A stretch of 28,293 nucleotides of DNA. Source: a virus. Its lineage: Duplodnaviria > Heunggongvirae > Uroviricota > Caudoviricetes. Shown here piece after piece: positions 4,156-24,888 of the stretch; position 1 is the first letter of the stretch, and each line of letters begins with the position of its first letter. Under the pieces are notes generated by a model. It made no database searches and was not told the DNA's origin. It was given only the letters and a program-made list of their open reading frames with translations. A program made the translations under genes and the position numbers. Location of the stretch: the IMG/VR virus record IMGVR_UViG_3300031760_000004, positions 1 to 28,293 of that record, one strand, 5' to 3'.

Positions 4156-4156
4156 C

Positions 4157-4849
4157 ATGCTTTCAAGGATACGCGGCGCGGTCCGCGCATATTTCGTCTC
4201 CCCGGGCGCAATCGGCGCAAAGGCGGCCGACTCGTCGTACCCGGCCCTGTCCGTGCACAACACCCTGTCTTTCGCAGCGGCGGACGTAATGGCCGCCGCG
4301 TACGGGGGCGACACCTCTCGCATCCCGAAGTACATCGGGTTTATCTACGGCGTTGACACGGCGCCGTCCCTTCCGCCGATAGACCGCGCAATGACCATGC
4401 AGTCGGTGCGCAAGATGATAGAGGACATCGGCGACGCGAACATGCAGGTCGCCAGGTTCAGCCGCAAGCCGACGGTGGGCGACTACGGCACGTTCGGTGA
4501 GCAGGAGTCTCCTCTCTGCCCCGATCCGGAGAACTCGAACGACTCTAACGACTCCAATGGTTCAAACGACGTTCAAAAGTACTACGGAAACGTGGTCGAG
4601 TTCCACGCGATGACCAGGACCGGCCCCGACGGCTTCTACGCCAACGACACGCTTTCCGGAGGCGTGTTCGCCGGCGAATGGGGAAACGGGATGACGATAT
4701 ACAGGGCGGTGCTGCTGGGCGACGGCCGCAACCCGTGCGAGGATCCGTACACCGTGCTGGCCATGGTGGACCTCAAGAAGAACAACGTGTACCGGCAGAA
4801 GCCGGAGAACTACGAGCTCGCCCTTGACTGGCGCGTGATATTCGAATAG
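4157..4849 (+). CDS. Putative baseplate/tail-collar-type structural protein with DSN repeat
   Basis: Start moved to ATG 4157 (TGA-C-ATG junction). HNT...ADVMAA...IGF and the C-terminal K..NYELALDWRVIF resemble the fibre-attachment/collar proteins of myovirus baseplates. Confidence 0.55.
   Translation: MLSRIRGAVRAYFVSPGAIGAKAADSSYPALSVHNTLSFAAADVMAAAYGGDTSRIPKYIGFIYGVDTAPSLPPIDRAMTMQSVRKMIEDIGDANMQVARFSRKPTVGDYGTFGEQESPLCPDPENSNDSNDSNGSNDVQKYYGNVVEFHAMTRTGPDGFYANDTLSGGVFAGEWGNGMTIYRAVLLGDGRNPCEDPYTVLAMVDLKKNNVYRQKPENYELALDWRVIFE
4532..4570 (+). repeat. In-frame DSN-type 9-bp repeat, site 1
   Basis: AAC TCG AAC GAC TCT AAC GAC TCC AAT GGT TCA AAC GAC = NSNDSNDSNGSND. Confidence 0.9.
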
Positions 4850-4857
4850 GAGTCAAA

Positions 4858-7800
4858 ATGGCAGTCTGGCAGAAAGTCACAGAACTCGTAGACGGCTCTC
4901 CGGTGGCCGCCGAGACATTCAACCCGCCCATTGCCCAGCTCGCCTCCAGGACAGACTACCTGAAGGACATGCTCGACCGCCTGCTGGATGACGGCGGCCG
5001 GGGCGCGATAACCGTCCGCGTCCAGCTTTCGGCAAGCGACACCCCCGTGGCCGGCGACATCGTGTGCGTCGACCCGGCCACCGGGCTTTACAGGAAGGCC
5101 ATAGCGTCAATGGACCTGTACGACGCGTATACGGCCTCGGAGAAGGCGTTCGCCATAGGCATCCTCGTAAACCGCGACCCGGACTCCCTGTCGGGCCTCG
5201 TCACGCTGTACGGCCGCATCTCGCTTTCTGGTCTGAACACGTCCGGCATGGTGGACGGCGCGTCCGGCGTGTTCACTGGCGGCCAGTACTACCTGTCGTC
5301 AACCGCGCCTGGAAAGATCACGCGCTTCCCGAACGGGCCCAGGATCCTCATCGGGTATTTCGCAAGGGCCGTGCAGAAGAACGGGTCTTACAACGGGGAT
5401 GTCGCGTTCATAAACCCGCAGCACATGGACATAGAGTCCCATGCCCACAGAACGTACACGCTTCTCGCAAGGCCGTGCGGCGTATCGTCGCTGGAGTTTC
5501 CGGATAATTCTAACGATTACACCGATTCAACCGATTCAAACGATTCAAACGACCAATTACCGGCCGGACGCGTTGTGGTGAACGGGTATCTGCCTCAAGA
5601 AGTTGCAAACGGCGGTGTCGGCATCCCGTATCTCGTTGTGTGCGGCGATTGGACCGTGGACTATGCCGAAAGCTATGCGGTTACAGTATCAAATGGAGTC
5701 GTTGACTGCAACGAGCAGTCTACAAAATGGCCGGTTGACGTCGAGTGGTGCAAGGTCGGCGCTAATGAATGCGGTAGCGGAAAACTGAACTTCTTCGGGG
5801 ACAGCATAGCCGTTGGCAAGCATGGTCTGAGAATCAAGCTTCAGCCGTCCGCAGGAATGTCGGAGGATACCCCGTTCGGTGTCAGGGACCTTACGGATGA
5901 ACAGCGCACATGGTCCATTGACAGGTTCAGCGGGTGCGGGTGGTCGAAGGCCGACGCCGACACGGTGTCCGAGTTCGGTTCCGGAATGATCCGTTTTGGA
6001 GGGGTATCCGACAAGTTCATGAACCACATAGTGGTCCAGGCCCCGGAAAAAATATACGACCTCACGACATCAATCGCCAGGACAGACGAAGGCGACCGGC
6101 TTGAAGTCGATGGCCGTGTGTACGTGTTCACCACGTCTCTGACGCCTGAGGACTCCAACGATTCGTCCGAGGAGGTCACCTATATCCAGATTCTTGACAA
6201 CACTGTGCAGCACGACACGTTCGACACCTTGGCGCAGCTGTGCGACTACGAGGACGGGGCGGTGTTCTACGAGGACAGGTACCTACGGCAGGTTCTTCTT
6301 GGCGCCGACGACGTGTTGTTCAATGACGAACCGTTGACTCCGGCGGTTTCGGGAACATCAAGCGACATGTTCGCCCTGGTGTCGTATGACAATGGCGAAT
6401 CGCTGTTGGCGCCGGTCATCGTCGGGCAGGCCAGAGAGCTTAGCGTTGTGAAGGTGGATCCCTGGAAGGTGGTCCAGCTTAGAAACGGACTCAACATGAT
6501 GGTGTTCCCTGGTGGGGGACTGGAGTTCGGAAGCAAGGCCGTCGCGGACATCTACTGTGTTCCAGGCTCGAAGTTCCGGTACAATATCGAGTTCGACAAC
6601 GACCTCAAGCTCCATTTCCCGCCTGTTCCAGCCCGATCCGGCTGCCTGATGCTGAACGGTGTCGAGCTTGAGTCGTACGAGAACTACGGCAACAGGGCGG
6701 TCATCGCCATCGGTGACGACTCCATCTACTGGCGTGACGACACCGAGGGCCGGCAGCCGTGGCCGTTCCCGGACATGGCGCAGTACGACAAGGTCCCGGC
6801 CGAGGACGAGTACCGCGAGCTGTTCCATTTCGTGTCGGAGTTCCACTCCGAGACGGGGCCGGTGACGTCGCTCCATCCGGCGGAGGGGTCGCCGATAACC
6901 ATACGCAGGTGCGGAACCGACGAAGACGCGACGGTCGGCGACCTTGAACTCGACGTCGACCTAATGCTCGGCATGTCGGACCGGAACACCCCCGGGTACA
7001 AGGTGCCCAAGGCGTTCAGGGGAGGAAAGTTCCTGCTCGGACCCGTCGTGGAGAAGGTAGTGGCGGGTCCTGGCATATCGATTTCAAAGAAGGCCGGCGT
7101 GCCGGACGGGCAGGGTGTCGTCACGATATCAGCCGACGGGTCGCAGTACGCTGGCGACTTCGAGACGGTCGCGCTTGAAAACGCGAAGCTGGAGTCCGTG
7201 GGCATGTTCCCGTACACCAGGCTCCTTAAGTGGGATCCGGCCTCGGACTCCAACATACCGACCGGTTTCGTGGCCAAGTTCCACGTCCCGGCGACGGCGT
7301 CGGACGCCGTGTACCGCGTGAAGTTCTACGCCACGGTGTTCGGCGAGGCGTCGTTCTCCGGCGAGTACAGGAACGCCGGCGTGCGCATGGACTACAGCAT
7401 CCTCCCCGACTTCACGATGGTTGGTTCCGAACTGCCGACGGCCAACTTGAAGACAGGCCTCATACGGCCTGACGAATCCGTGGTGCTCGACATCCCGTTC
7501 GGCGCCCCGGACGACAACGCCGAGGTGTCGTACACGGCGTACGACCCGATCCTCGTGCATAACGACGCGGCAATAGCCGACGTGTCCGGGCGTAGCGCCA
7601 GGGTGCTTGACTACGCCTTCCCGACCGAGAAGGACTGCGCCGGGTACGTCGATTCCCACGCGGGCAAGTTGTCCGGCGTGTTCGGGATACGCCCCGGGTA
7701 CACGGTCGCGATACGGTTCTCCCGCGACGCGCCGAGCTCCGGCACGCCGTACACGGGCGCCATCGGGTTTCTGAATCTTCGCTGGGCGGTAGAGGAGGTG

Positions 7801-7950
7801 TCCGTGATCGACGTAGGAGGCAAGACCTACGACGATATCGTGGCCATCACCGTGGCCAACCTTCGGAAGGCGGCCAGGAAGTCCGGTCCGTTCGACACCG
7901 GCTACTCCGTGGCGGATTTCCTCACCAAGGTGGCGAACGCCCTTAGGTAG
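4858..7950 (+). CDS. Tail fibre/baseplate-attached protein, 1030 aa
   Basis: GGAG SD; N-terminal TFNPPIAQLASRTDYLKD anchor motif typical of myovirus tail fibres; YYLSSTAPGKIT..P module; two DSN tracts. Confidence 0.65.
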   Translation: MAVWQKVTELVDGSPVAAETFNPPIAQLASRTDYLKDMLDRLLDDGGRGAITVRVQLSASDTPVAGDIVCVDPATGLYRKAIASMDLYDAYTASEKAFAIGILVNRDPDSLSGLVTLYGRISLSGLNTSGMVDGASGVFTGGQYYLSSTAPGKITRFPNGPRILIGYFARAVQKNGSYNGDVAFINPQHMDIESHAHRTYTLLARPCGVSSLEFPDNSNDYTDSTDSNDSNDQLPAGRVVVNGYLPQEVANGGVGIPYLVVCGDWTVDYAESYAVTVSNGVVDCNEQSTKWPVDVEWCKVGANECGSGKLNFFGDSIAVGKHGLRIKLQPSAGMSEDTPFGVRDLTDEQRTWSIDRFSGCGWSKADADTVSEFGSGMIRFGGVSDKFMNHIVVQAPEKIYDLTTSIARTDEGDRLEVDGRVYVFTTSLTPEDSNDSSEEVTYIQILDNTVQHDTFDTLAQLCDYEDGAVFYEDRYLRQVLLGADDVLFNDEPLTPAVSGTSSDMFALVSYDNGESLLAPVIVGQARELSVVKVDPWKVVQLRNGLNMMVFPGGGLEFGSKAVADIYCVPGSKFRYNIEFDNDLKLHFPPVPARSGCLMLNGVELESYENYGNRAVIAIGDDSIYWRDDTEGRQPWPFPDMAQYDKVPAEDEYRELFHFVSEFHSETGPVTSLHPAEGSPITIRRCGTDEDATVGDLELDVDLMLGMSDRNTPGYKVPKAFRGGKFLLGPVVEKVVAGPGISISKKAGVPDGQGVVTISADGSQYAGDFETVALENAKLESVGMFPYTRLLKWDPASDSNIPTGFVAKFHVPATASDAVYRVKFYATVFGEASFSGEYRNAGVRMDYSILPDFTMVGSELPTANLKTGLIRPDESVVLDIPFGAPDDNAEVSYTAYDPILVHNDAAIADVSGRSARVLDYAFPTEKDCAGYVDSHAGKLSGVFGIRPGYTVAIRFSRDAPSSGTPYTGAIGFLNLRWAVEEVSVIDVGGKTYDDIVAITVANLRKAARKSGPFDTGYSVADFLTKVANALR
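5503..5553 (+). repeat. In-frame DSN-type repeat, site 2
   Basis: Encodes DNSNDYTDSTDSNDSND; ends in GATTCAAACGATTCAAACGAC. Confidence 0.9.
6151..6168 (+). repeat. In-frame DSN-type repeat, site 3
   Basis: GAC TCC AAC GAT TCG TCC = DSNDSS. Confidence 0.7.
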
Positions 7951-7960
7951 GAGGTGTGAC

Positions 7961-8887
7961 GTGGCCTCCGTGATCAATGCAGAATGGCTAAACCAGAATT
8001 CTCAGCGGGCGTATCCGTTCGCCGAGGACATGCTCAGGCGCCCCACGATTGACGGGGCCGTGTCCCCCGGGTACGCTATACCCAACGGCGCGTTTCTCGA
8101 CATGGTCATGGCCACCAATTTCGACCCGCAGCCGTCCGTGTACCTGAGCGCGTTCACCCTTGCTGGCTCATCTGCCACGGCCGTAATCTCCGACGCCTCG
8201 GACGGCGGGGTGCTTGCCGTCGCCTCAGCCGTTGTCACGGACGACGAGTACACCCCAGTGAACTTCTCGGGTTCCGGAAGGCACGACGACATCAGGGGCA
8301 CGGTGGTGTTTGGAAACCTCGCGGCCGTGGCGCAGTCGCTGCCGGACGGAATCTACCGGTTCGGCCCCGGCGAGACCAGGTTCGAGGCGAGATGCTGCCG
8401 CCCGTCAATCCCGTGCGTGAGCGGGCTGTTCCTGACGAACGCGGCCGGGACGCAGGACGGCGCCAGGCTCCGCGGCGACGTGGCCATCGTGGCCGGCCAG
8501 AACGTGTGGCTCGACTACGACGAGGAGAACAACGCGATCATCATAAACGCCGACAACAGGTACGGGTACAACGACAAGTGCGACTGCGACTCCGGCGACA
8601 GGCGCCAGCCCATTCTTACCGTGAACGGCATAAGCGCCCCGGAAGTCGAGATAGAGGGCGGCGACTGCGTGAACGTCGAGAAGCGGGACGGCCGGATAAT
8701 AATATCGGACACCTGCTCGAAGCCGTGCTGCGGGTGTGCCGAGCTGACATTCCTCAACCAGAAGACCAACAACATAACCACTTCAATAGGCACGCTGGAG
8801 CAGTACGCGAACAGCCTCCACGACAGGCTGGAGGACTTCGTGCGGAACGTCCTGCTCTCCAACCGGAGCCAGTCAAAGTTCCTGTAG
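7961..8887 (+). CDS. Structural protein, paralogue 1 of the N-x4-aromatic-PF family
   Basis: GTG start with AGGAGGT SD at 7949-7955; WLNQNSQRAYPF; C-terminal CSKPCCGC followed by a heptad-like helix. Confidence 0.75.
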   Translation: MASVINAEWLNQNSQRAYPFAEDMLRRPTIDGAVSPGYAIPNGAFLDMVMATNFDPQPSVYLSAFTLAGSSATAVISDASDGGVLAVASAVVTDDEYTPVNFSGSGRHDDIRGTVVFGNLAAVAQSLPDGIYRFGPGETRFEARCCRPSIPCVSGLFLTNAAGTQDGARLRGDVAIVAGQNVWLDYDEENNAIIINADNRYGYNDKCDCDSGDRRQPILTVNGISAPEVEIEGGDCVNVEKRDGRIIISDTCSKPCCGCAELTFLNQKTNNITTSIGTLEQYANSLHDRLEDFVRNVLLSNRSQSKFL

Positions 8888-8888
8888 C

Positions 8889-10586
8889 ATGCTGAACGCC
8901 GGATATCTTACGTCAAATGCCGCCACCGCGTGGCCGTTCGACGCCGACTCCTCCGGGCCGGCGCTGGACATGCGCGTGGCGTCGTTCTTCGCCGACGGGG
9001 CGGTGGTCCTGCAGCCCGGCGAGCAGGGCGTCCCCGTGCTCGTGGGCGACGTGCGGGCCGCGGAAGGGGCGTTCGGGTTCACGCTGTCCAAGGGGGACGA
9101 GGCAGAGCGCGTGTCCGTTGACCGGTTCGACGGCGAGTACACCGTCGTCAGGCGCGGGTGGTGCTTCTTCGTCCTCAGCAACCACGACATCCTGGAGGCC
9201 ATCGGCGACGGCGGCTACGAGTCAGCCGGGCCGTTCAGGCTGGACCCGTCGGCCACGTCCATGACGCCGGACAGGGTCACGTCGTTCACGCTCTACAACC
9301 ATTTCGGGACCGGCGAGCTTGTCCCGACGCACTCCGGAATCTCCGGGGATGTCTCGATACGCGGGGGCACAAACGTGTACGCCGGCCTTGATTTCGCACG
9401 TGGTTTCCACCCGGGTGTGCCGGATGTCAGCGGAGTCCTCCCGAACGGATTCCTCGGAAACGCGTTCGTCATATCCGCGGTTCCTGGCGAGGGTACCGGA
9501 ACGGTCCCGTGCGGCACGACAGACTGCGGCGACAAAACGGCCGGTACTGGGTCGATCGTGCCGGACGACGAGGGCGACTTCGTGCTGGAGGGCGACGACT
9601 GCCACCAGATAACCACGTACGGCAACGTGATCCGAATTACCGGAAGGTGCACCCCGTGCTGCCAGTGCGAGGACTACAAGGCGACCGGCGACCGGCTGGG
9701 GGAGCAGGCCAGGTCCGTCATAGACGTGTACTCCAGGGCGCTTGCCGACTCCGAGCTCTACAACACGTACGCCAGGAAGTTCAACCGCGCTCTGAGAAGC
9801 GTGTCGCCTGACGAGCTCGTGGTCAAGTGCATGGCGCTCACGCAGCGCATAGAAGCCGGATCCGCCCATCCGGTGAACATGTCGAGCGTCACGGGGTCCA
9901 TAGACCGAGGGCAGGGGCTTGTCGTGATCGAGAACGCCTCCCCCGTCCAGGTGCACGTCACCGTGGGCGTCGACATGGCCCCGCAGAAAATCGCGATGGC
10001 CAGCGTCGTTGAACCAGTGGACTCAAGTTCCGGCACGGTGAACACCAGGACCAGGACGGTGTACGCCGGCGGCAGCATAGTCAGAATGGTCACGGACATA
10101 TTCACTCTGGATTTCCACGGCGTCGAGATACCCGACTACAGCGCGGTTGACTCGTTGCTCGCGGTCGACGTCGAGGTGTGGGACTTTTGCGACTCGAACG
10201 ACTCCAATGATTCGAACGACTCCAATGATTCGAACGACTCGAACGATTCAAATGACTGTCCGAGACTTGTCGCCGTCTACCGGGCGGGATCGTCGGTCAC
10301 CGCCGAGATGATAGACGTGTGCTTCATGTACGGGATACGCGAGCTTGACGTGTATCGGTCGGCCGGCCTGTCCTACTCCGTGTCGATCAAGCCCGGGTCC
10401 GCCATCTCCATGAGGGTTTACGGGGCCAGCACCGCCATGACCACATCCACGGAATGCCATGTGTCCGGATATGCGCGCTTCAGGTGGACCGAGGAATACG
10501 ATTCCGGGGAAGAGTCCAACGACGGCGCGGAGACGAAGCGCGGAGCGCTGGTGAAGTGGTTCTCGGCGAGCCAGGAGGTGAAGTGA
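8889..10586 (+). CDS. Structural protein, paralogue 2, with Cys-flanked (DSN)7 tract
   Basis: TAG-C-ATG junction; YLTSNAATAWPF; RCTPCCQC; C-(DSN)7-D-C. Confidence 0.75.
   Translation: MLNAGYLTSNAATAWPFDADSSGPALDMRVASFFADGAVVLQPGEQGVPVLVGDVRAAEGAFGFTLSKGDEAERVSVDRFDGEYTVVRRGWCFFVLSNHDILEAIGDGGYESAGPFRLDPSATSMTPDRVTSFTLYNHFGTGELVPTHSGISGDVSIRGGTNVYAGLDFARGFHPGVPDVSGVLPNGFLGNAFVISAVPGEGTGTVPCGTTDCGDKTAGTGSIVPDDEGDFVLEGDDCHQITTYGNVIRITGRCTPCCQCEDYKATGDRLGEQARSVIDVYSRALADSELYNTYARKFNRALRSVSPDELVVKCMALTQRIEAGSAHPVNMSSVTGSIDRGQGLVVIENASPVQVHVTVGVDMAPQKIAMASVVEPVDSSSGTVNTRTRTVYAGGSIVRMVTDIFTLDFHGVEIPDYSAVDSLLAVDVEVWDFCDSNDSNDSNDSNDSNDSNDSNDCPRLVAVYRAGSSVTAEMIDVCFMYGIRELDVYRSAGLSYSVSIKPGSAISMRVYGASTAMTTSTECHVSGYARFRWTEEYDSGEESNDGAETKRGALVKWFSASQEVK
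10191..10256 (+). repeat. In-frame (DSN)7-D repeat, site 4
   Basis: Seven GAY-TCN-AAY units plus GAC, flanked by TGC and TGT (Cys). Confidence 0.95.
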
Positions 10587-11335
10587 TGGATTCCGCCAGG
10601 GAACTTCCGGGCGCTCTCGGCCCGTCTGTAAGCCAGCCCCAGTGGGAAAGCGGCAACGTGTCCGTTAGGTTCCCGTTCGCGGACGACGCCGGCCCCGAGG
10701 GATACCCGTTCAATGCGATTTCCGACGCCTGCGTGGTCATACCGTCCGGGCGGGAGGCGTCGGACGAGACGGTGTCCGTGGGCTGCCTGCACATAGGCCC
10801 GTCCATGGTGTCCGTCATGATATACGCCGGCGACGAGCCAGTCCTGTGCAGGCATGTGCCAAAGTCGGTGTTCGAGCCCTTCACGCCGTTCGCCCTTGAG
10901 CCAATGAGGCCCGGCTGCTCCGGGTTCGTGTCGTTCGGCGACATCAGGTTCGAGTCGTTCAGGGACCCGGTCATGCTGCGCGACAGGGTCAGACTTTCGG
11001 ACTCCGCCGTCATCAGGCCGGTGGTTGGCCGTTTGACGAAGTTCATAAAGCCAGAGACGGGGTCCGAGGCCAGCGGCATAGTGGGAATAGTGGTGCCGCA
11101 GGAGGTTTCGGTCGCCCGCGAGCTCGATCCGGACGGACGGGAGGTCGGCCACGAATCGGTGGTCGGCTTCTCGCTGGACGCGGATGGCCTTGACCTGGTG
11201 TCGGTCGGATGCGACGCCGCGGAGGCGGAGGCCGGTTCGCCGGTTCCGGTCAGCTCCGTAAACGGGCTGCAACCCGACGAGAACGGCGTCATAGCCGTGG
11301 TGTTCGCCAGGGACGAGTCGGAGGTGCCGGAATGA
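10586..11335 (+). CDS. Structural protein, paralogue 3
   Basis: Start moved to the TGATG overlap at 10586; WESGNVSVRFPF; C-terminal SVNGLQPDENG. Confidence 0.7.
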   Translation: MDSARELPGALGPSVSQPQWESGNVSVRFPFADDAGPEGYPFNAISDACVVIPSGREASDETVSVGCLHIGPSMVSVMIYAGDEPVLCRHVPKSVFEPFTPFALEPMRPGCSGFVSFGDIRFESFRDPVMLRDRVRLSDSAVIRPVVGRLTKFIKPETGSEASGIVGIVVPQEVSVARELDPDGREVGHESVVGFSLDADGLDLVSVGCDAAEAEAGSPVPVSSVNGLQPDENGVIAVVFARDESEVPE

Positions 11336-12363
11336 TTCTTCCGTCGGTGACAGGCACAAGGTACGCAGAGCACGAGAATCTCAACTCGTACCGCAACTAC
11401 CCGTTTTCGGAAACCGCCGACCTTAGGGACGGGTCCGGGTCGCGGATCGCGTCCGACGTGTTCACGGACGCCATGCTGTACCCCGTGGTGACGGAGGCCC
11501 GGAGACTTAGGCTGTCGGTTCTCGACTGCGCCTCCGGGGAGGTCGCGGTGACTGACGGCGAAACCGTGGTCTCAGGGTCGGAGTCCGACGGATCCGTGGA
11601 ACTGTACGACGCGTACGGCAGGCATGCCGGCACAATTGTGTGCGGACCCGGCTGGGACAGGGAGCGGCAGTCCGGCAGGCGCCGCGAGTTCGACGGGCTG
11701 TGGTTCGCCCCGCAGGCGGAATGCCCGGTGGTGCACTCTGGCGTCATGGGGCTGGCGGACGAGGGCCGCACATGGCGCACCACGAGGCGCGACATCGTGC
11801 TCAGGGGGGACGGGAACATCACGCCGGTGCTCTCGGATACCGAATCCGGGCCCGTATTGAGGTTCGACGCCCAGTATGAGCCGCCGGCGTCCGGCAGGCG
11901 GCTCGTCAGGCAGATCCTGTTCGCCACGGCGGGGCAGACCATGTTCGAGATTTCGGAGTCGGGCGAGGATTCGGCCGTTGAGCTGTCCATGTCCGAGATG
12001 GACCGCGAGGACGTATGCTGGCACGCCCACCTGGGCGACGACGTCGCCGTGGTGGCCGACGCCTGCTCGGGCGGCGGGCAGGAACCGTGCGGACCGGTGT
12101 TCGTCGGGGTCAAGGCGGACGAGGTCAGGGTCTGCCCGTCCGACATCGGGAACATCGAGATAATAGCCGACGACGCCGTCGGGTTCAAGAACCCGGTCAA
12201 GGTGTCCGCCGTCGAGGGCGGGGCCGTCGCGCCGAGGCCGCAGATCGTCGGCGGGATGTCCCAGGAGGACATATTCGCCGAGGCGTCCAAGATGCTTCAG
12301 CGCCCCGTCACCGTCGGCAACGGGGTCAGAATAGGCATACCGGGGGTCAACCATGGCTGGTAG
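11332..12363 (+). CDS. Structural protein, paralogue 4
   Basis: Start moved to the ATGA overlap at 11332; HENLNSYRNYPF. Confidence 0.7.
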   Translation: MILPSVTGTRYAEHENLNSYRNYPFSETADLRDGSGSRIASDVFTDAMLYPVVTEARRLRLSVLDCASGEVAVTDGETVVSGSESDGSVELYDAYGRHAGTIVCGPGWDRERQSGRRREFDGLWFAPQAECPVVHSGVMGLADEGRTWRTTRRDIVLRGDGNITPVLSDTESGPVLRFDAQYEPPASGRRLVRQILFATAGQTMFEISESGEDSAVELSMSEMDREDVCWHAHLGDDVAVVADACSGGGQEPCGPVFVGVKADEVRVCPSDIGNIEIIADDAVGFKNPVKVSAVEGGAVAPRPQIVGGMSQEDIFAEASKMLQRPVTVGNGVRIGIPGVNHGW

Positions 12364-14915: not shown

Positions 14916-14923
14916 GAGGCATT

Positions 14924-15367: not shown

Positions 15368-15380
15368 AGTGGAGACCGCA

Positions 15381-15731: not shown

Positions 15732-15732
15732 C

Positions 15733-16716: not shown

Positions 16717-16720
16717 AGCG

Positions 16721-18778
16721 ATGGCGTATGTGAACCCTGTAAACCCTGTAGGCGTAAACCCCGTCCTCGACCAGGAGCGCATTCCAGTTATCAAGGTCGT
16801 GAACGGCGACTCGTGGGTCGTCGACGCCAACCTCTACAACCCGTCGAACTACGAGCCGGCCACGGTGGAGAACACCAAGGTCGAGTTCATCCTGACCGAA
16901 AACAGGTTCACCAAGTACGCCTTCTGGATTGGGAAATGGATGGAGGGCGTCGTCCCTGACGAGCATATACCAGGCCTGGTACACGTCAAGGTGCCGAATG
17001 AAGTGTCGGCGTCGCTCAGGAGGGGCATATACGCCTTCTCGCTCAGGGTTACGGACTACCTAGACAAGGAGACCAAGACCGAGTTAACCGGGTACTTCCA
17101 GGTCGAGTACGAGCCCACTTCGGACACGCACGACATTCCATATAGACCCGGAAGCGGCGCCGATGGGCCGGTGATACCGCTGGTTCCGGGTGGTGAGCCG
17201 GGGAAGCAGGGGCCTACAGGAGATCAGGGAGAACAGGGAGAGCAGGGACCGACAGGGGAGCCTGGAGTTCCCGGAGAGCCCGGAGAGCCGGGTGAACCTG
17301 GCGAACAGGGCGAACAAGGTCCTACGGGAGAGTCTGGTGCCAGGGGCGCCACAGGTGAACAAGGTGAACCTGGAGAACCGGGAAAACCCGGCGCCGACGG
17401 GCTTAAGGGGCCCACGGGAGATGAAGGCCCTGTAGGTCCTGTAGGTCCCACAGGTCCTGCAGGTCTGCAAGGACCGACCGGGGACAAAGGCGTCGACGGG
17501 CTTCAGGGGCCAACTGGCGACGCCGGCGTAGACGGTCTTAAAGGACCTACAGGCGACAAGGGCGCAGACGGTACGCAGGGACCAACCGGAGACGCCGGCA
17601 TCAACGGTCTGCAAGGACCGACAGGCGACGCCGGGGCCAATGGGCTCCAAGGTCCAACAGGCGATAAGGGCACAGACGGGCTTCAGGGACCAACCGGCGA
17701 TCAGGGCATAGCAGGGTTACAAGGTCCTACCGGAGATGCTGGTGTAAATGGTCTTCAAGGTCCCACCGGCGACCAGGGTGTGGTCGGTCCTCAAGGCCCA
17801 ACCGGTGATCAGGGCATAGTAGGGTTACAAGGCCCAACAGGTGATCAAGGTGTTTCAGGACTGCAGGGTCCCACAGGAGATGCCGGCGTAAATGGTTTGC
17901 AGGGTCCCACAGGTGACCAAGGTGTTTCGGGGCTACAAGGACCAACAGGCGACCAGGGCGTGGTTGGGCTTCAGGGTCCAACTGGTGACAAGGGGCTTCC
18001 CGGCGATCCCGGTGAACTTACCGGCAAGCTCGACTCCGTCGCAGCCGCCCCGGATTTCTCCTCGTCCTCGACCTACTTCGTGGGCGATTACGTCACCTAC
18101 CTCGGCAGGCTCTACAAATGCACCGCCGCCGTGACCACGGCCTGGGACTGGACAGGTTCCACGAACTGGACGGAGGTTGACATGACCTCGCCTGACGCCA
18201 CGGTTGACATAACCAACGACGGGTTCCTGAGGGTCGTGTCCGCGGACGGGGAGATTCTGTGGGCCGAGGGCTACAACCTCTCCGAGGACAGCTCGGACTC
18301 CATGTCCAACTGGTCCGTGAAGGGCTACACTTTCGCGGCCAACGCTACTAGCGGAGTCTCATTGTCGTTACCGACGGCGATGGCAGGAAAGGTCGGAGAC
18401 TTCATACTCGACGTGACCAACCCGGCTCTTGACATGACTTCGCTGCCCACGGCCTTCAGCGATTCGGCCACCTACGCAGCTGGTGACATCGTGAGCTACG
18501 ACTCCAAGATATGGAGGTGCGTGGTCGCGGTCGAGACAGCGGGGGCTTGGACTGGCACGACAAACTGGGAGGAGGCGTGGCCATACATCACGCTGGCCCA
18601 GGTGACGGCTATGACGGCCTCTGTTGTGGTTCCGGCAGGCGAAGACTTGCAGGAAATGCTCACATTCGCTCCGGGGACGATGTGCGAGCTGTACTTCACC
18701 CAGACGGCGTTCAACGTGGACTCAAAGCCGACGTGGAAGGTGGTCAGGCAGGATGTGGAAAGCGGAGGCGCGTCATGA
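16721..18778 (+). CDS. Collagen-like fibre protein with two CBM5/12-like modules
   Basis: N-terminal globular anchor-like domain; about 92 uninterrupted Gly-X-Y triplets (17192-18019); two TY..GD.V.Y....(Y/W).C...W....NW modules. Confidence 0.8.
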   Translation: MAYVNPVNPVGVNPVLDQERIPVIKVVNGDSWVVDANLYNPSNYEPATVENTKVEFILTENRFTKYAFWIGKWMEGVVPDEHIPGLVHVKVPNEVSASLRRGIYAFSLRVTDYLDKETKTELTGYFQVEYEPTSDTHDIPYRPGSGADGPVIPLVPGGEPGKQGPTGDQGEQGEQGPTGEPGVPGEPGEPGEPGEQGEQGPTGESGARGATGEQGEPGEPGKPGADGLKGPTGDEGPVGPVGPTGPAGLQGPTGDKGVDGLQGPTGDAGVDGLKGPTGDKGADGTQGPTGDAGINGLQGPTGDAGANGLQGPTGDKGTDGLQGPTGDQGIAGLQGPTGDAGVNGLQGPTGDQGVVGPQGPTGDQGIVGLQGPTGDQGVSGLQGPTGDAGVNGLQGPTGDQGVSGLQGPTGDQGVVGLQGPTGDKGLPGDPGELTGKLDSVAAAPDFSSSSTYFVGDYVTYLGRLYKCTAAVTTAWDWTGSTNWTEVDMTSPDATVDITNDGFLRVVSADGEILWAEGYNLSEDSSDSMSNWSVKGYTFAANATSGVSLSLPTAMAGKVGDFILDVTNPALDMTSLPTAFSDSATYAAGDIVSYDSKIWRCVVAVETAGAWTGTTNWEEAWPYITLAQVTAMTASVVVPAGEDLQEMLTFAPGTMCELYFTQTAFNVDSKPTWKVVRQDVESGGAS
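17462..18001 (+). repeat. 15 x 36-bp (12-aa) collagen repeat array
   Basis: Unit GLQ-GPT-GD(K/A/Q)-Gxx repeated 15 times with heavy synonymous divergence. Confidence 0.95.
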
Positions 18779-20028
18779 TACCGAGAGTGCCTTACGATGC
18801 GGAGATAGAGTACCTGGAAGGTACCGGGACGCAGTGGATTGACACTGGCGTGCACGGCACAGAGACAACGAAAATAGAGGCTGGTATAAACCCATCGCAG
18901 GATTCAGGAATATCGGCCAAAATTTTTGGAGATTACTCCGGGGCTACTGCGTCCAGACGTCTTTACGGGGGAATATTGATAGGGGAGAACAAAAGAACAA
19001 TAGTATGTAAATATGGTGCTATAACTAAGCCTGTCTTTGGCACAGATGGGAATTATGTTCCGAAGGACGTAATCTCGCTTTTTAGGATGGGACCTACAGG
19101 CGTGAGTTGCGGAGAAACATTTTCGGCGTCATGGACCGCTTCGAATGTTTTTAGTACAGCGGCCACATTATACCTTTTCAAATATAATGGGCAGGCAGAC
19201 GCGAGCGCTTTTATCGGTAAAATGTATTTTTGTCAAATTTATATTAACTCCTCCCTCATCCTCGACCTCATCCCGGTCCGCATAGGCCAGACCGGCTACA
19301 TGTACGACCGTGTTACGAAAAGGCTCTTCGGCAACAAGGGCACCGGCTCGTTCGTCCTCGGCCCCGATGTGGCTAAACCCGTAATTGGGCTGTACGGGAT
19401 GAGGAAGTTCTACAGCACCACGGACTACATCCAGGACGGACTCGTGGCCATGTGGGACGGAATAAACAACACCGGTCACGGCCATGACCCGGAGGCCACG
19501 GTGTGGAAAGATTTGGTAGGAGATAGAGACTTTACCTTAAATGGCGCAGTTGTCGGTCAAGACAGTATTTCGTGGAACGGAAACTACCGTTCTTCGAGTT
19601 CCCACCAGCCGCCTAATTTCGTTCAAATGGAGATTCTTTTTAGGACAATTAGCGGGTATAGCTGGAAAGTGTGGTTTGGAGACTATGGTCATTCTGTATC
19701 ATCGTACTTTGGGGCGGTATTAGAATCAAAAACAGCACGGCAGGACAATAGCAGTTACAAATTTGGCGCGCTTGCAGTCTCCATACCATTGGTTGCACCG
19801 TCAGAATCCGGTAAAAGATGGGCTAATAAAATTTATGAAAAGAGTGTGTTAAAAAATATATCGGGCAACTTCAATTATGTTGGAACGGACTGGGCTGCCA
19901 ATACAATGCAGTTAGGGGGAGCTAGCGGATTGTCATTGAGATGCATTCGTCTTTACTCACGTTACCTATCAAACGCTGAAATCGCGCACAACTACGCCAT
20001 AGACAAAGCGAGGTTCAACCTGCCATGA
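18775..20028 (+). CDS. Two-domain ConA/LamG-like putative adhesin
   Basis: Start moved to the ATGA overlap at 18775. Domain 1 spans EYLEGTGTQWIDTG...MYDRVT..LFGN.GTG.F; domain 2 spans QDGLVAMWDG...CIRLYSR.LS.AEI..NY, a LamG-like ending. Confidence 0.6.
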   Translation: MIPRVPYDAEIEYLEGTGTQWIDTGVHGTETTKIEAGINPSQDSGISAKIFGDYSGATASRRLYGGILIGENKRTIVCKYGAITKPVFGTDGNYVPKDVISLFRMGPTGVSCGETFSASWTASNVFSTAATLYLFKYNGQADASAFIGKMYFCQIYINSSLILDLIPVRIGQTGYMYDRVTKRLFGNKGTGSFVLGPDVAKPVIGLYGMRKFYSTTDYIQDGLVAMWDGINNTGHGHDPEATVWKDLVGDRDFTLNGAVVGQDSISWNGNYRSSSSHQPPNFVQMEILFRTISGYSWKVWFGDYGHSVSSYFGAVLESKTARQDNSSYKFGALAVSIPLVAPSESGKRWANKIYEKSVLKNISGNFNYVGTDWAANTMQLGGASGLSLRCIRLYSRYLSNAEIAHNYAIDKARFNLP

Positions 20029-20774
20029 GTACTTTTGGAAAAATAGGGGCAAGACCTCTTCTGCTTAAGAACACCGGCGAATACGCGGAGGAACAGATGT
20101 ACAAGGAACTTTTCAAGGCTACTATAGAAAGAACTGGGATCGGGACGGGACATATGGACCTAGTTGGCATTGACATACAGTCCATTGGCAGACAAGCATA
20201 CTCATGGCACAGAAACATTGGTGAAATCAACCTGCCCAACGTGCTGTCAGTCGGCCAGCAGGCTTTCGACAGCGCCATAATCTACGGAAACATCAACCTT
20301 CCAAACTGCACGACAAGCGGGTACCGCATGTTCACAGAGGCGTACATGTATGGAGCCGAGGTGCACATGCCTTCGCTTGTGACTTCTTCTGGACAGGAGT
20401 TCTACCAGGCGCTTCAGTGGAGCCGTGTAAACACCTCCACAAGGGTGTCCATATACCTTGACTCTCTGTCGTCCATAGGCAACAGCATGTTCTACAACGC
20501 AACCGGGATGGCAAGGCTATACGCCCCAACGGTTACGTCGATATCTGGTGCAAGCGCGTTCCTGCTCGTCGGAAACAGTGCCTCGGCGGGGAACGTCGAG
20601 CTTGTGGTTGGCAGTAAAGATATGGACACCGGAATGACGATGGCCGGTCTTGTGGGGTCGAGCGGATTTCCATTTGGAGCCGCGGCGTCATCCAGGGTGA
20701 AGTGGACATGCAAGGACGGGACCGTGACCTACGACACCTCCACCTCGTCATGGGTGCAGACTCCGTACGCCTAG
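20025..20774 (+). CDS. BspA-like leucine-rich-repeat protein
   Basis: Repeats INLPNVLSVGQQAF, INLPNCTTSGYRMF, VHMPSLVTSSGQEF, IYLDSLSSIGNSMF and LYAPTVTSISGASAF. Confidence 0.7.
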   Translation: MSTFGKIGARPLLLKNTGEYAEEQMYKELFKATIERTGIGTGHMDLVGIDIQSIGRQAYSWHRNIGEINLPNVLSVGQQAFDSAIIYGNINLPNCTTSGYRMFTEAYMYGAEVHMPSLVTSSGQEFYQALQWSRVNTSTRVSIYLDSLSSIGNSMFYNATGMARLYAPTVTSISGASAFLLVGNSASAGNVELVVGSKDMDTGMTMAGLVGSSGFPFGAAASSRVKWTCKDGTVTYDTSTSSWVQTPYA

Positions 20775-20786
20775 AAGGGCTTTACC

Positions 20787-21368
20787 ATGAAGACAAATCA
20801 GCATTTCGCCAAACTAAACAACCGAATCCCCGAATACGCCCCGGTGCCGCTCAAGGTCGTCACGCACCACCACGAGGAATACGACGTCGATGTTCTCGAC
20901 CCCGAAACCGGCGAACCCACCGGCGAGACGGAGCATGTGGTTTCAGATTGGGACACCTGGGAGAGTAAACTGTTTCCAACAACAGAAGAGTACCTCAGGA
21001 TGGGGTGGCTCATCGTTGTTGATAAGGCCCCGAAGGCCGAGGAAGGCCATTCAGTCCGCAAGACCGGTTTTGCGGACGATATTGACGGCAAAATCGTCAT
21101 GGAGTATGAGCAGGTTCCACTTCCGCCCATGGTCCACACCTACAAGCGCTCATACCTCGCCCAGTGGATGAGGGCGAATGGCAAGTGGGACTCCTTCAAG
21201 GGGCTTCTGGGGCTGTCCGAGGACCTTGAATTCTTCTGGGAGACAAGCACCGAGTTCGACTCCAACCATCCGCAGTGGGGAACGGTCATGGCGGCTGTTA
21301 AGTCGGCCCTTGAACTGACGGACGAGGACATGGCCGAAATGCTTGAATACGGCGAAAGGGGAGCGTGA
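20787..21368 (+). CDS. Hypothetical, possible fibre-associated chaperone
   Basis: 193 aa; C-terminal W...EF...P......ALELT.E.M..ML pattern resembles small proteins found downstream of phage fibres. Confidence 0.5.
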   Translation: MKTNQHFAKLNNRIPEYAPVPLKVVTHHHEEYDVDVLDPETGEPTGETEHVVSDWDTWESKLFPTTEEYLRMGWLIVVDKAPKAEEGHSVRKTGFADDIDGKIVMEYEQVPLPPMVHTYKRSYLAQWMRANGKWDSFKGLLGLSEDLEFFWETSTEFDSNHPQWGTVMAAVKSALELTDEDMAEMLEYGERGA

Positions 21369-22069
21369 TGCTTATAGCCGGCAGGAATGGTATGGCGGTG
21401 AAGTTCCCACCGACCGCCAAGAACTATGTTCAGGATGGGTTGGTGGCGATGTGGGACGGCATTGAGAACGCCGGGTGGGGACAACATGATGCGAACGCGA
21501 CGGTGTGGAAGGACCTAATAGGTGATAACGACATAACACTCACGATGGGTGGCGGAAGCTGGGTTCAAAGCGGTGGGCTGTTCATTGCAAAATCGCCTAA
21601 AACCACGGGCGTTTTCAAAAGGAGCGAAACAACCTACAGGCAGATAGAGGTCGCAGGTGTAGAACTGACAGGAGATCTATCCTACAATAGACACATTCTG
21701 ATTTCGTTCGGCAGTACACATTCATTTGTTATCGGACAGAATAGGCTTGGGTTCATAGTGGCAAATAATGTAGTTGGTATTGAACCAACATATCCGGCGG
21801 TCAACAGGGCAAACATTCCGTTCTCCGTGTCGGTGTCATATACCAGCGGAAATCTACCAGACCCGAACGCCATGTATTATAACGGCGAGAAAAAGCAACA
21901 GGATGGGCAAAATATCCTTCTAGGAGGAGCATCTGGCGTATTTAACAATTACGGGAACTACCAAGCCGACGCCAATATCTTCTGTATCCGTCTCTACTCC
22001 CGCGCCCTGACCGCTGACGAAATCGCGGCCAACTACGCCGTGGACAAAATCCGCTTCAACCTGCCTTAG
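21368..22069 (+). CDS. Single-domain ConA/LamG-like putative adhesin
   Basis: QDGLVAMWDGIENAG...ATVWKDL and CIRLYSRALT..EI..NY.VDK.RFNLP; paralogue of domain 2 of 18775-20028. GTG 21365 is an alternative start. Confidence 0.6.
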   Translation: MLIAGRNGMAVKFPPTAKNYVQDGLVAMWDGIENAGWGQHDANATVWKDLIGDNDITLTMGGGSWVQSGGLFIAKSPKTTGVFKRSETTYRQIEVAGVELTGDLSYNRHILISFGSTHSFVIGQNRLGFIVANNVVGIEPTYPAVNRANIPFSVSVSYTSGNLPDPNAMYYNGEKKQQDGQNILLGGASGVFNNYGNYQADANIFCIRLYSRALTADEIAANYAVDKIRFNLP

Positions 22070-22089
22070 AAATGGTGTACAATTAAACC

Positions 22090-22332
22090 ATGGACAACCA
22101 AGCTTCAAACCCATCCACATCCAATGACTACCGCGGCAAGATCCGGGTCTTCGGGCGCAACATGCTCGCCGGCCCCCTATTCGAGTCGTCGGACGCCCAG
22201 ACGATCGTCATGTACGACGACAAGGGTTCGCCGTGCGTGCTGCTCGCCAGGCTCGTGGACAACACCTGGGCCATGGGGACTGTAGCCGACGAGGACTGGG
22301 AGAACGTGAAGCAGCGGTTCGGAGTGTACTGA
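22090..22332 (+). CDS. Small hypothetical protein
   Basis: 80-aa ORF with genome-like codon use; no SD; TACAAT ends 6 nt upstream of the ATG. Confidence 0.65.
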   Translation: MDNQASNPSTSNDYRGKIRVFGRNMLAGPLFESSDAQTIVMYDDKGSPCVLLARLVDNTWAMGTVADEDWENVKQRFGVY

Positions 22333-22398
22333 CCCCTTTTCCCAAATCCGGGAATAGTGTATACTAGTCTTTGTAAATAAAATCAAACCATAGATTCG

Positions 22399-22433
22399 CC
22401 GGCGGGGGTCTTTGGTGTTTTCTACCCCGCCGG
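22399..22433. repeat. Inverted repeat, 9-bp GC stem
   Basis: CCGGCGGGG (22399-22407) pairs with CCCCGCCGG (22425-22433), 17-nt loop, intergenic. Confidence 0.8.
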
Positions 22434-22467
22434 TGGGCCCCCGGGTGAAGGGCTTATTCATTTCACC

Positions 22468-22496
22468 TTCATACGCGAACCCTTTTTTGCTATAAT
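22468..22496 (+). promoter_or_regulatory. Sigma70-like promoter with extended -10
   Basis: TTCATA (22468-22473), 17-nt spacer, TG-C-TATAAT (22488-22496); SD GAGGAGG at 22501-22507 follows. Confidence 0.7.
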
Positions 22497-22515
22497 GGAT
22501 GAGGAGGGATTCAAA

Positions 22516-24888
22516 GTGGCTGACACAAAGGTGGTACCGTACAACTTGGGGCAGATACCGTTCGGAAAAAAGGTCTACACTTCCGACCAGGTCGACTACA
22601 TCGTCAAGAACGCCGGCCTTGACGTAGGCATCTACAAGTACAGGGGCACCGTGCATTCATACGATGACCTGCCGTGGCCTTTCGACTCCACTGATTCAAA
22701 CGACTCCCCGTCCGTAGGCGACGTGTACGACGTCGAGGAAGGCTACGAGGACAGCAACTACAGCATACCTCCGGGAACCAACTGGGCCTGGAACGGTGAG
22801 AGATGGGACCCGCTGTCAGGATCTCTCGCCGACTATCTGAGCAAGAAGGCCGCGGCGGAGACTTACGCCACCAAGACCGAGCTCGGTGACAAGGCGGATA
22901 AAGTCCCGAACGCAACAGCCGACAACTTCGCGGGCCTGGACGAGAATGGCAACCTCAAGGACAGCGGGAAGAAGGCCGGCGACTTCGCCACGGCAGAGCA
23001 GGGCGCAAAGGCTGACAGCGCGATACAGTCCGTCAAGGTCAACGGCACCGCCCTTACGCCGGACGCGCAGAAGGCCGTGGACATCCCAGCCGCGACAACC
23101 GGCGTGCGCGGCGTCGTGAAGCTCAACAACTACACTAACTCCACGTCCGTGACCGAGGCGGCCACGCCGAACGCCGTCAAGACGGCCATGGACAACGCCA
23201 ATGGCCGGGCGAGCCTGACCGAAGACAACGAGTTCTACGGCGCAAATACATTCAGAAGCGTCCCAGATGTAAAAACCACTGGTTTTACCAACATCATGTT
23301 TTTCAGAGTTGTGTATGACGAAAGCCTCGGAGACGACAGGTACGACCCAGTGTTCACCATGGACGACGTCTCGATGGTCTACCGCAGCTCGTGGGATTCT
23401 GAGCTGACAAGGGAATTTTTCCACGAGTTCTTCTCGGAGGCTTGCTGGAGGCTGCTGACTGACGGTGAGTGGCTTTTTGCGGGCAACCTTTCCGGCGCCT
23501 CGTTCTACGACGCCGTCGACGGATCTACCGAGACGTTCGAGGTTGCGACCGGCTATACTGACGAAGCCACGGGCGAGTGGGTGGAAGAGCAGTGGAAGAC
23601 GGCGTACATTGACTGGAGCGGCTCCCGCCTAGACCTTGATGTAAACGACCATGGTGGATACGGTGAGTCTACAGGTGTCGTGGTGGTACCTATGCGTGAA
23701 GCTGGGACTGCCGTCTGGATAGGCGATTTGAGATATCCGCTTTCGTTCGGCGTTAACGACGGCTACACCGGCCCGAAAGGCACTGTGACCATCGAGGGGT
23801 ATTCAGACTTCCAGTTTTATGACGAGTCCGGGTCGCCTATCGATGCGTCCCCTACCGACTATGAGTTCCCCGGCCTCAGGGCCAGTACCGACCCGTCGGA
23901 CCCGGCATACGATTTGCACTACGAAGAGTACCCCGACGAGTATGGCTGGCTGCCGGCGCTCGACACACGGCTGGCGACGATGGCCGATATTCCAGATGTT
24001 GAAGCGTCGGTGGCCGCGCACAACGACGACACGTCTGCGCACAATTTATTGTTTTCCGGCAAGCTCAACACATCACACAACACGGATGCGAACGCGCATA
24101 GCGCGCTTTTTTCCGCCGCGGCTCCACTGCCGCCAATTCGCGTTGGCAATTTGATGGACACTGGTGTGATTCGCTTTCCATGGATGCCATCAGGAGGTGT
24201 AGGAGGTGTATACTCCGTTACGATGAGGCCCGTTGATTTGGTGCTCACGGCTGGAAGATCGATTTTGATTTCGAAGCACACCACGACTCAAGGCATTGCA
24301 GTGCTGTCAGCCGCGGGGACATATATCGTGAATATTGGTCTTGATGCAAGCAGCAATGAGTATGTTGATGTTCTTGGCGCCTATTATCCCGGCGGCGTTA
24401 GCAATGCTCCGGTACGTAACGGTTTCAAGCTAGTTGACTTTTATCTTCCGGTTTCACTTTCTCCGAACGAATCCGACTCAGACAAGATGCGTGTTTTTCA
24501 AATAAGCGTGGCGACCGACCATTCAACCCCGGGAAACTCCGGCGGTACGTACACGTACACTACAAAAACGCTTCTGTCCATCCCGAGGTATATTCCGGAC
24601 ATGCCTCCTGTGACCGCCGATTCCGTGGTCTTGAACATGACGCTTGTGAAGATTCCGTGCGTGATTACATACTCCTTATACCGTACGTCATCATCCAGCA
24701 ACGCATGGAGGGTCATGAACTTCCAAGCCAACATGGATTCTCCGCTGTGGAAGCATGTTGACTACTCGTTCGTACATAACAACGCCTCTACCACTGTAAA
24801 CTATAGCTTCCCCAGCGCGGTGTACCGTCCCGAGCCTGACTGGACGCCCGTGCCAAGCTCGTATCTTGGAGACTTTTTTACTACTTAA
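22516..24888 (+). CDS. Mosaic tail fibre protein
   Basis: Start moved to GTG 22516 (SD GAGGAGG; ATG 22495 overlaps the -10 box). GVVKLNNYTNSTSVTEAATPNAVKTAMD matches the phage tail-fibre repeat; AHNDDTSAH and SHNTDANAH are His-type tail repeats; one DSN tract. Confidence 0.75.
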   Translation: MADTKVVPYNLGQIPFGKKVYTSDQVDYIVKNAGLDVGIYKYRGTVHSYDDLPWPFDSTDSNDSPSVGDVYDVEEGYEDSNYSIPPGTNWAWNGERWDPLSGSLADYLSKKAAAETYATKTELGDKADKVPNATADNFAGLDENGNLKDSGKKAGDFATAEQGAKADSAIQSVKVNGTALTPDAQKAVDIPAATTGVRGVVKLNNYTNSTSVTEAATPNAVKTAMDNANGRASLTEDNEFYGANTFRSVPDVKTTGFTNIMFFRVVYDESLGDDRYDPVFTMDDVSMVYRSSWDSELTREFFHEFFSEACWRLLTDGEWLFAGNLSGASFYDAVDGSTETFEVATGYTDEATGEWVEEQWKTAYIDWSGSRLDLDVNDHGGYGESTGVVVVPMREAGTAVWIGDLRYPLSFGVNDGYTGPKGTVTIEGYSDFQFYDESGSPIDASPTDYEFPGLRASTDPSDPAYDLHYEEYPDEYGWLPALDTRLATMADIPDVEASVAAHNDDTSAHNLLFSGKLNTSHNTDANAHSALFSAAAPLPPIRVGNLMDTGVIRFPWMPSGGVGGVYSVTMRPVDLVLTAGRSILISKHTTTQGIAVLSAAGTYIVNIGLDASSNEYVDVLGAYYPGGVSNAPVRNGFKLVDFYLPVSLSPNESDSDKMRVFQISVATDHSTPGNSGGTYTYTTKTLLSIPRYIPDMPPVTADSVVLNMTLVKIPCVITYSLYRTSSSSNAWRVMNFQANMDSPLWKHVDYSFVHNNASTTVNYSFPSAVYRPEPDWTPVPSSYLGDFFTT
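22684..22707 (+). repeat. In-frame DSN-type repeat, site 6
   Basis: GAC TCC ACT GAT TCA AAC GAC TCC = DSTDSNDS. Confidence 0.85.

Follow-up and report, generated by a model that had tools for sequence, protein, structure and literature searches.

Repeat linkers are well known in phage tail proteins, where they include the collagen-like Gly-X-Y repeats of Streptococcus thermophilus phages and the Gly-rich motifs of T-even adhesins. Here we describe a repeat of another composition: six tracts of the tripeptide Asp-Ser-Asn (DSN), encoded near the start of the genome of an uncultured phage from bovine gut metagenomes (IMG/VR record IMGVR_UViG_3300031760_000004, a single contig of 162,185 bp with 60% GC, rated 100% complete by CheckV). 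The window, by which we mean the whole stretch of DNA analysed, is the first 28.3 kb (28,293 nucleotides) of this record. Together the tracts form a clade-specific, selection-maintained, length-variable Asp-Ser-Asn/Thr repeat in predicted exposed loops of five proteins, and in kind they add a new variety to the linkers named above. Like those linkers, they are short in-frame tandem repeats that border variable domains and differ in unit number from strain to strain, and the collagen repeats of the window itself vary likewise (+9 bp at 14271). Unlike them, the DSN/T unit is acidic and polar instead of Gly-X-Y or Gly-rich, has no known regular structure, and recurs in five unrelated proteins, in which it can be traced to a conserved single Ser-Asn-Asp turn.

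All six tracts proposed in the initial annotation were recovered in frame at the positions reported there, within five plus-strand genes (Table 1). The same annotation had assigned them to one common reading frame, and this was not so: the absolute frames are 1, 0, 0, 2, 1 and 0, and the frame of each tract is that of its own gene. The sequence Asp-X-Asn-X-Ser, a glycosylation-type sequon, is indeed present at 6 of 6 sites, and tract 4 does hold six overlapping copies of DSNDS; however, because the sequon follows automatically from DSNDS, its presence at every site adds no evidence. Tandem Repeats Finder reported periods of 9 and 18 at the tracts, with tract 4 at period 18 and 3.6 copies.

Counts against a null bear out the view that the tracts recur beyond chance and only in virion proteins, those of the baseplate and fibres. 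DSNDS was observed 10 times and DSNDSN 8 times, whereas within-protein shuffles gave means of 0.03 and 0. In a six-frame scan, every tract of the 162,185-bp genome fell in the first 23 kb. A looser class of at least two consecutive units of the form [DE]S[NTSAEDG] gave 7 matches where 0.97 were expected; five of the seven lie in the baseplate and tail-fibre module, which makes up 17% of the proteome, and the crude gene set used for this count missed the sixth site. A literature search for DSNDSN returned no published description of the motif, and the GenBank phage collection held no match to 6 kb of window DNA (megablast) or to two of the proteins (tblastn).

Matches to the pattern (DSN)3D in two other collections were rejected. 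The 40 matches in IMG/VR come mostly from AT-rich low-complexity regions of giant viruses and none is related to this clade; one GC-rich match, L044, was inspected and proved uninformative. Those in GTDB genomes are mainly non-coding 9-bp minisatellites in Vicinamibacterales, unrelated to the phage, and they offered no hint as to its host. The minisatellites are an observation in their own right: dozens of dispersed, mostly non-coding copies of GAYTCGAAY/GAYCCGAAY (reading DSN/DPN) occur in metagenome-assembled genomes of Vicinamibacterales and other Acidobacteriota, L061, L063, L073, L080, L093 and L102 among them, and make up a lineage-specific repeat family.

Table 1. DSN tracts, the genes that carry them and neighbouring features (window coordinates unless marked as genome; aa, amino acids; ORF, open reading frame; GT, glycosyltransferase; TM, template modelling score; LRR, leucine-rich repeat).
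Feature	Position	Strand	Sequence or match	Context
Tract 1	4532-4558	+	NSNDSNDSN, then GSND to 4570	In 235-aa baseplate-type protein
Gene for 235-aa protein	4142-4849 (ORF open from 4085)	+	Database protein P0043, 100% identical, 235 aa	Carries tract 1
Tract 2	5503-5553	+	DNSNDYTDSTDSNDSND, DSNDS from 5533	In 1030-aa protein
Tract 3	6151-6168	+	DSNDSS	In 1030-aa protein
Gene for 1030-aa baseplate/fibre protein	4858-7950	+		Carries two tracts
Tract 4	10191-10256	+	(DSN)7D	In 565-aa protein, between Cys434 and Cys457
Gene for 565-aa protein	8889-10586	+		Carries tract 4
Tract 5	15011-15034	+	DDSNDSND	In 147-aa protein
Gene for 147-aa protein	14924-15367 (ORF open from 14900)	+		Carries tract 5
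Tract 6	22684-22707	+	DSTDSNDS	Near N-terminus of 797-aa tail fibre
Gene for 797-aa tail-fibre protein	22495-24888	+	PF03406 Phage_fiber_2, tail-fibre PHROGs	Carries tract 6
Baseplate_J protein	711-2375	+		Module member
Collagen-like fibre	13062-14915	+		Module member
S8 subtilase, stand-alone	15733-16716	+		Inside fibre module
Collagen-like fibre with CBM_5_12	16721-18778	+		Module member
BspA-type LRR protein		+		Module member
GT2-like gene	27350-28141	-	ESM Atlas features 0.99, structure TM 0.74	First of convergent block
Rest of GT block	genome 28143-32079	-	TOD1/MUCI70-like gene, weak GT2 match, 856-aa double GT2	

We found no homologues of three tract-bearing proteins outside metagenomes, and the contigs that carry homologues share the same syntenic module. 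Tracts occupy the same loops in L003 (GC 0.645), L005 (0.374), L053 (0.539), L054 and L055, with a different copy number or as a remnant only, and across relatives the motif varies in length, from one Ser-Asn-Asp turn up to a run of many units. In the family of the 235-aa protein, about 35 of 37 members hold at least one [DE]-S-[NTSA]-[DE] unit, placed some 10 residues before a conserved Y-x-G-N-x-V-E-F-H block, and a subset holds 2-4 units. The 147-aa family (30 homologues) has a loop of 0 to about 45 residues with DSN/DST/DSS/DSA/ESE periodicity; one homologue, P0014, has three units against two in the window. At the position of tract 4, members of the 565-aa family have 0-8 units, and further tracts lie elsewhere in these proteins, usually at indel boundaries. 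The window's 565-aa protein is one of five N-terminally related paralogues encoded between 7961 and 13081 and matched no Pfam or PHROG family. Where the window has tract 2, relatives show DSND, SND or longer tracts, while G004 (38% GC) keeps short SND remnants at three or four orthologous sites. Two more distant contigs, L001 and L002 (30-50% identity), had no tracts within the 20 kb examined of each. As a single Ser-Asn-Asp unit is kept across relatives and expanded in some of them, the ancestral state looks like a single turn that was expanded repeatedly.

The repeat unit is 9 bp long, GAY-TCN-AAY. Among 63 units from six phages, entropy was 1.09, 1.86 and 1.24 bits at codon positions 3, 6 and 9 and 0.2-0.9 bits at the others: the wobble positions are close to scrambled and the other six are nearly fixed. 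Within the unit, conservation is highest for Asp (97%), Ser hardly varies, and Asn is replaced most often, as a rule by Thr (12 of 63 units). When the window is compared with L003, 21 of 54 tract codons show a synonymous and 11 a non-synonymous difference, whereas the rest of the same proteins shows 519 synonymous and 629 non-synonymous differences among 1896 codons; in proportion, the tracts thus have more synonymous and fewer non-synonymous differences. By this comparison of homologues, the tracts are maintained at the amino-acid level.

Selection might instead act on the DNA, with the tracts serving as clusters of GANTC (CcrM/HinfI) sites spaced by 9 bp for methylation or protein binding. 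In the window, tract Ser codons are TCN in 22 of 22 cases and AGY in 0 of 22, against 22% AGY genome-wide (p = 0.004), and GANTC therefore occurs in every unit. Yet the SND units of L003 and L053 use AGC codons for Ser, so that the GANTC site is lost there, and the peptide persists across GC contents of 37% to 64%. Genome-wide, GANTC occurs at 562 sites against about 560-610 expected, which is no bias, and the genome encodes no methyltransferase of the N6_N4 (CcrM) type. Because of these four observations we place selection on the peptide and not on the DNA. The AGC-encoded units in relatives largely refute the DNA-level explanation, and we give it almost no credence.

The tracts also change between closely related strains. 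We aligned Logan contigs from four gut runs to positions 4000-23000. Run X2 yielded one 90-kb contig about 95% identical to the window; over the roughly 11.6 kb aligned it showed three indels only, each of 9 bp: a deletion at 10190 and insertions at 15019 and, in the collagen repeat, at 14271. Tract 4 thus has one 9-bp unit fewer in this strain, and tract 5 has one unit more, AACGACTCA, which matches P0014. In tract 1 there are 4 synonymous changes and a Gly to Asp change at 4560 that lengthens the repeat. In a contig from run X3, position 22641 is joined to tract-4 DNA, a junction we read as a longer tract 6 in that strain. The collagen-like repeats, including (GPT)n at 14246-14299 and 14634-14704, show the same 9-bp unit polymorphism as the tracts, in the form of the insertion at 14271.

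Within the gene for the 1030-aa protein, 5483-6214 and 6256-6547 could not be aligned to X2 at 85%. The unalignable segment starts 20 bp ahead of tract 2, and the first of its two blocks stops 46 bp past the end of tract 3. We regard about 5483-6547 as a strain-hypervariable cassette, with which the protein alignment agrees (residues 215-560), and it probably marks a receptor-facing domain. Compared with L003, residues 215-560 are 40-70% identical and the flanks 80-97%; tract 2 forms the N-terminal edge of this variable central region, and tract 3 falls within an indel-rich block of columns in the alignment of the 1030-aa protein (A4). In L003, a mini-domain is inserted at the site of tract 2, flanked by a Pro/Thr/Glu-rich linker at one end and by a DSN tract at the other.

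Such positions raise the possibility that the tracts are recombination junctions, their shared 9-bp periodicity supplying microhomology for the swapping of the variable domains they border, much as collagen-like repeats flank the variable region of receptor-binding proteins in S. thermophilus phages. The cassette borders near tracts 2 and 3 are consistent with this, as are the tracts at boundaries of indels and domain insertions in alignments A1 and A4 and the X3 contig, in which tail-fibre tract DNA aligns to tract 4 of another gene. Of the four breakpoints in X2, two are no more than 50 bp away from a tract, which is too small a count to weigh either way. However, synonymous scrambling leaves few long identical runs for such exchange, the right end of the cassette (6547) is not at a tract, a linker would be expected at domain edges anyway, and no chimeric gene was seen. 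We therefore consider this explanation improbable.

The initial annotation had placed the tracts on exposed loops, and structure prediction points the same way, with a predicted local distance difference test (pLDDT) score below 50 over the tracts in two AlphaFold2 (AF2) models, both of monomers without ions. The model of the 235-aa protein has a predicted template modelling score (pTM) of 0.80 and shows residues 123-145, which contain tract 1, as a loop with pLDDT below 50. That of the 565-aa protein is poor overall; its tract 4 residues 436-455 form a coil of pLDDT below 50 between confident strands. Foldseek found no significant match in the PDB for either model, and phmmer found no sequence in the PDB similar to the tract region. 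With VIA-align, the best matches of the 235-aa model were the HFTV1 tail (Z 8.3), the KP1 baseplate (6.7) and the phi812 baseplate (6.0), all of middling Z. All five tract proteins are strongly acidic (net charge -7 to -56) and of cytoplasmic type, and a simple hydropathy test found a signal peptide or membrane segment in 0 of 5.

Our preferred explanation, to which we give a probability of roughly 0.45, is that the tracts act as acidic, hydrated and flexible loops or linkers where variable domains begin or end. Their starting point would be the conserved single Ser-Asn-Asp turn, which one clade of large rumen or gut phages has in surface loops of its peripheral baseplate and fibre proteins. 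Replication slippage would then lengthen this turn in steps of one 9-bp unit or of a two-unit, 18-bp block, while selection would keep the chemistry of the residues (in each unit of three, one carboxylate, one hydroxyl and one group that is either an amide or a hydroxyl) and let copy number drift. The outcome would be length-adjustable, strongly hydrated, negatively charged disordered loops or linkers, located where insertions occur and where the variable, presumably receptor-facing, tail domains have their edges. Both slippage as the mechanism and an acidic-spacer role that needs no modifying enzyme are what we infer. O-glycosylation or the binding of divalent cations could add to the linker role.

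Several points weigh against a plain linker. Asp, Ser and Asn are kept more strictly in the tracts than residues are in the folded parts of the same proteins, which is unexpected for a simple spacer, and a lone S-x-D/E unit is kept across the 235-aa family down to 41% identity; together, these two observations argue for a more specific role of Ser and Asp. It is also one tripeptide that recurs in five unrelated proteins, not assorted low-complexity sequence. All relatives that we examined in reasonably complete form have a glycosyltransferase block next to the module, and the Cys/His-rich character of the equivalent loop in homologue P0003 hints at metal binding. Finally, low confidence in AF2 is weak evidence of disorder, and the loop might be ordered in a trimer.

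The conserved Asp could point to cation binding. Asp carboxylates together with Ser and Asn oxygens, repeated every three residues, would chelate Ca2+ or Mg2+, and the bound ions would make the loop more rigid or, at adsorption, link the tail to anionic polymers of the host surface. D-x-N-x-S matches positions 1, 3 and 5 of EF-hand-type loops, and D-x-N-D matches the cadherin linker. The 97% conservation of Asp and the strong acidity of the tract proteins are in keeping with such a role. So are the conserved Cys residues that bracket tract 4, where the P0003 loop is rich in Cys and His, and an invariant CxxCCxC cluster in the 565-aa family. On the other hand, the tracts are dispensable and of variable length (a single position may hold no unit or more than 7), and they have neither the Gly at position 6, the hydrophobic residue at 8 nor the bidentate acidic ligand at 12 of EF-hand and dockerin loops. 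No Pfam calcium-binding family matched, the AF2 models (monomers without ions, as noted above) show no ordered loop, and no similar sequence exists among the solved structures searched. Cation binding as the main function of the tracts is a minority candidate for us, although Ca2+ binding fits the pattern of conservation better than N-glycosylation does. Apart from the tracts, the Cys cluster of the 565-aa family deserves mention. It reads G-R-C-T-x-C-C-Q-C at 9642-9668 (residues 252-260), is accompanied by Cys208 and Cys238, and is common to 13 of 13 aligned members (the window protein and 12 homologues); being invariant, it is probably a metal site.

The glycosyltransferases that the initial annotation had noticed next to the module are real. 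They form a minus-strand block from 27350 to genome position 32079 that contains all GT2 domains of the genome, and no membrane-like segments were found in the glycosyltransferases of the block. Its first gene, the GT2-like gene within the window, is a candidate partner of the tracts. At the far end of the block stands a gene for a 567-aa protein (genome 32099-33802, minus strand; L006:4099-5802) that resembles a DnaG-type primase, a weak lead (ESM Atlas 0.91, TM below 0.5).

One use of such enzymes would be N-glycosylation, the tracts being D/E-X-N-X-S/T sequons for a PglB-type oligosaccharyltransferase or N-X-S/T sequons for a cytoplasmic N-glycosyltransferase (NGT/HMW1C). Both sequons are formally contained in DSNDS, and glycosyltransferase genes do adjoin the module. 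Beyond the letters D-X-N-X-S, however, what characterises these systems is missing here: the enzyme, the export route and the conservation of Asn. The complete phage genome encodes neither an STT3/PglB protein (PF02516) nor a GT41 enzyme (PF13844), and since the tract proteins lack signal peptides they have no access to the periplasm. Asn is the residue that changes most readily, with Thr, Ser or Ala in its place in orthologous tracts (DSTDSTDS, DSSES). Outside the tracts, both sequons occur at chance level (175 N-x-S/T against 180 expected, and 27 [DE]-x-N-x-[ST] against 23.7). The N-glycosylation proposed at the outset thus finds no footing in its PglB-type or in its NGT/HMW1C form, and we hold it to be very improbable.

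O-glycosylation of Ser fits the pattern of conserved residues better than N-glycosylation does. According to this explanation, the Ser (and Thr) of D-S-(N/T) are acceptor tags for the neighbouring soluble GT-A glycosyltransferases, decoration takes place in the cytoplasm before assembly, and the density of a glycan coat on baseplate and fibres follows copy number. Ser is nearly invariant and flanked by acidic residues, and the replacement of Asn by Thr adds a hydroxyl. The GT2 block lies directly after the fibre module, its enzymes have no membrane-like segments, and glycosyltransferases recur at the same spot in relatives while their types vary: GT2 in L176, G004 and G005, GT8 in L177 and G003, and GT2 with a TupA-type ATP-grasp protein in the P0010 contig. 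In L177 (L177:13779-15200) and G003 (G003:74886-76304), which belong to one sub-lineage, the GT8 gene is directly downstream of the tail-fibre gene on the same strand and replaces the convergent GT2 block. The collagen-type GPT is the module's other dominant tripeptide repeat. GPT is the O-glycosylated motif of Bacillus BclA, which makes it an alternative candidate acceptor for the glycosyltransferase block.

Bacterial adhesins offer a parallel, the variation in copy number recalling that of serine-rich and serine-aspartate (SD) repeat adhesins. Like the SD repeats of staphylococcal Clf/Sdr proteins and the streptococcal serine-rich repeats, the tracts are Ser-containing (Asp/Ser-based) tandem repeats of variable length in surface-exposed attachment proteins with glycosyltransferases nearby. 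Glycan elongation on serine-rich repeat proteins involves enzymes of the GT2 and GT8 types. The differences are considerable, however: DSN has a period of three with Asn or Thr, not of two, and forms internal loops of 2-7 units, whereas the adhesin repeats form stalks of hundreds of residues. The phage proteins are also made in the cytoplasm, and no GT-B/GT4 initiating enzyme was found in the genome.

Phages, too, provide a precedent. Mycobacteriophage virion glycosylation extends to the tail-tube protein, which is modified on C-terminal extensions. For mycobacteriophages Che8 and Rita, virion glycosylation by phage glycosyltransferases is established, with the major capsid protein as acceptor (Freeman et al. 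2023, as cited in PMC11256854). The present genome is alike in that phage glycosyltransferase genes lie near structural genes and virion proteins are the proposed acceptors. It is unlike the mycobacteriophages, with their Gram-positive-like host, in that the candidate acceptors are internal loops of baseplate and fibre proteins, read from sequence, with none elsewhere in the genome.

Other observations count against O-glycosylation. The genome has no match to PF00534 and thus no initiating enzyme of the SdgB/GtfA kind (GT-B/GT4); its glycosyltransferases are GT-A types only. They lie on one strand with the primase-like gene (itself a weak Atlas lead); if that lead holds, they may be transcribed along with replication genes at an early or middle stage, instead of with the late tail genes, and may have DNA or host glycans as their targets. 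As acceptors, the collagen GPT repeats would be as good as the tracts or better. In G004 the glycosyltransferase block is complete and the tracts are reduced to short SND remnants, and the block is therefore independent of long tracts. As to co-occurrence, L001 and L002, which are fragments only, lack both tracts and GT2, and G003, which carries GT8, is truncated inside its homologue of the 565-aa protein. Taken by itself, the idea that D-S-(N/T) serves as an acceptor tag is possible but doubtful. The fuller proposal, in which the tracts, perhaps with the GPT repeats, are O-glycosylation tags and slippage tunes the glycan coat on baseplate and fibres, seems to us a little more doubtful still. 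Acidophilic phosphorylation at S-x-D/E was checked as well, and no protein kinase (Pkinase, CotH) is present in the genome.

The tracts lie within a plus-strand baseplate and tail-fibre module that spans 191 to about 25,400. One of its members, the stand-alone S8 subtilase, is 63-75% identical in close relatives, above many neighbouring tail proteins; virion maturation and attack on the host surface are candidate roles for it. We set it aside as a protease that processes the tracts because subtilases are not known to prefer Asp, Asn or Ser sites. In every relative, a gene for a Sigma70_r3-type sigma factor stands directly upstream of the baseplate module (L003:1-749, L005:1-872, L053:399-1199), and the window begins just downstream of the position that this gene holds in them.

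To return to the tracts as linkers, the clade employs a single tripeptide repeat, kept by selection, in five tail proteins that are unrelated to one another, across genomes of 37% to 64% GC, and tract copy number changes on the timescale of strains. This makes the tracts a small system, open to experiment, for a functional low-complexity module of the virion. Should the adjoining glycosyltransferases act on them, virion glycosylation would extend beyond actinobacteriophages and be tied to a tunable minisatellite, and O-glycosylation would give this rumen phage a genetically variable glycan coat on its adsorption apparatus. If they do not, the tracts would still be a clear case of slippage-driven variation of loop length in the adsorption apparatus. 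Because tail-fibre and baseplate proteins set host range, such loop variation matters for the ecology of rumen phages and for the engineering of receptor-binding proteins.

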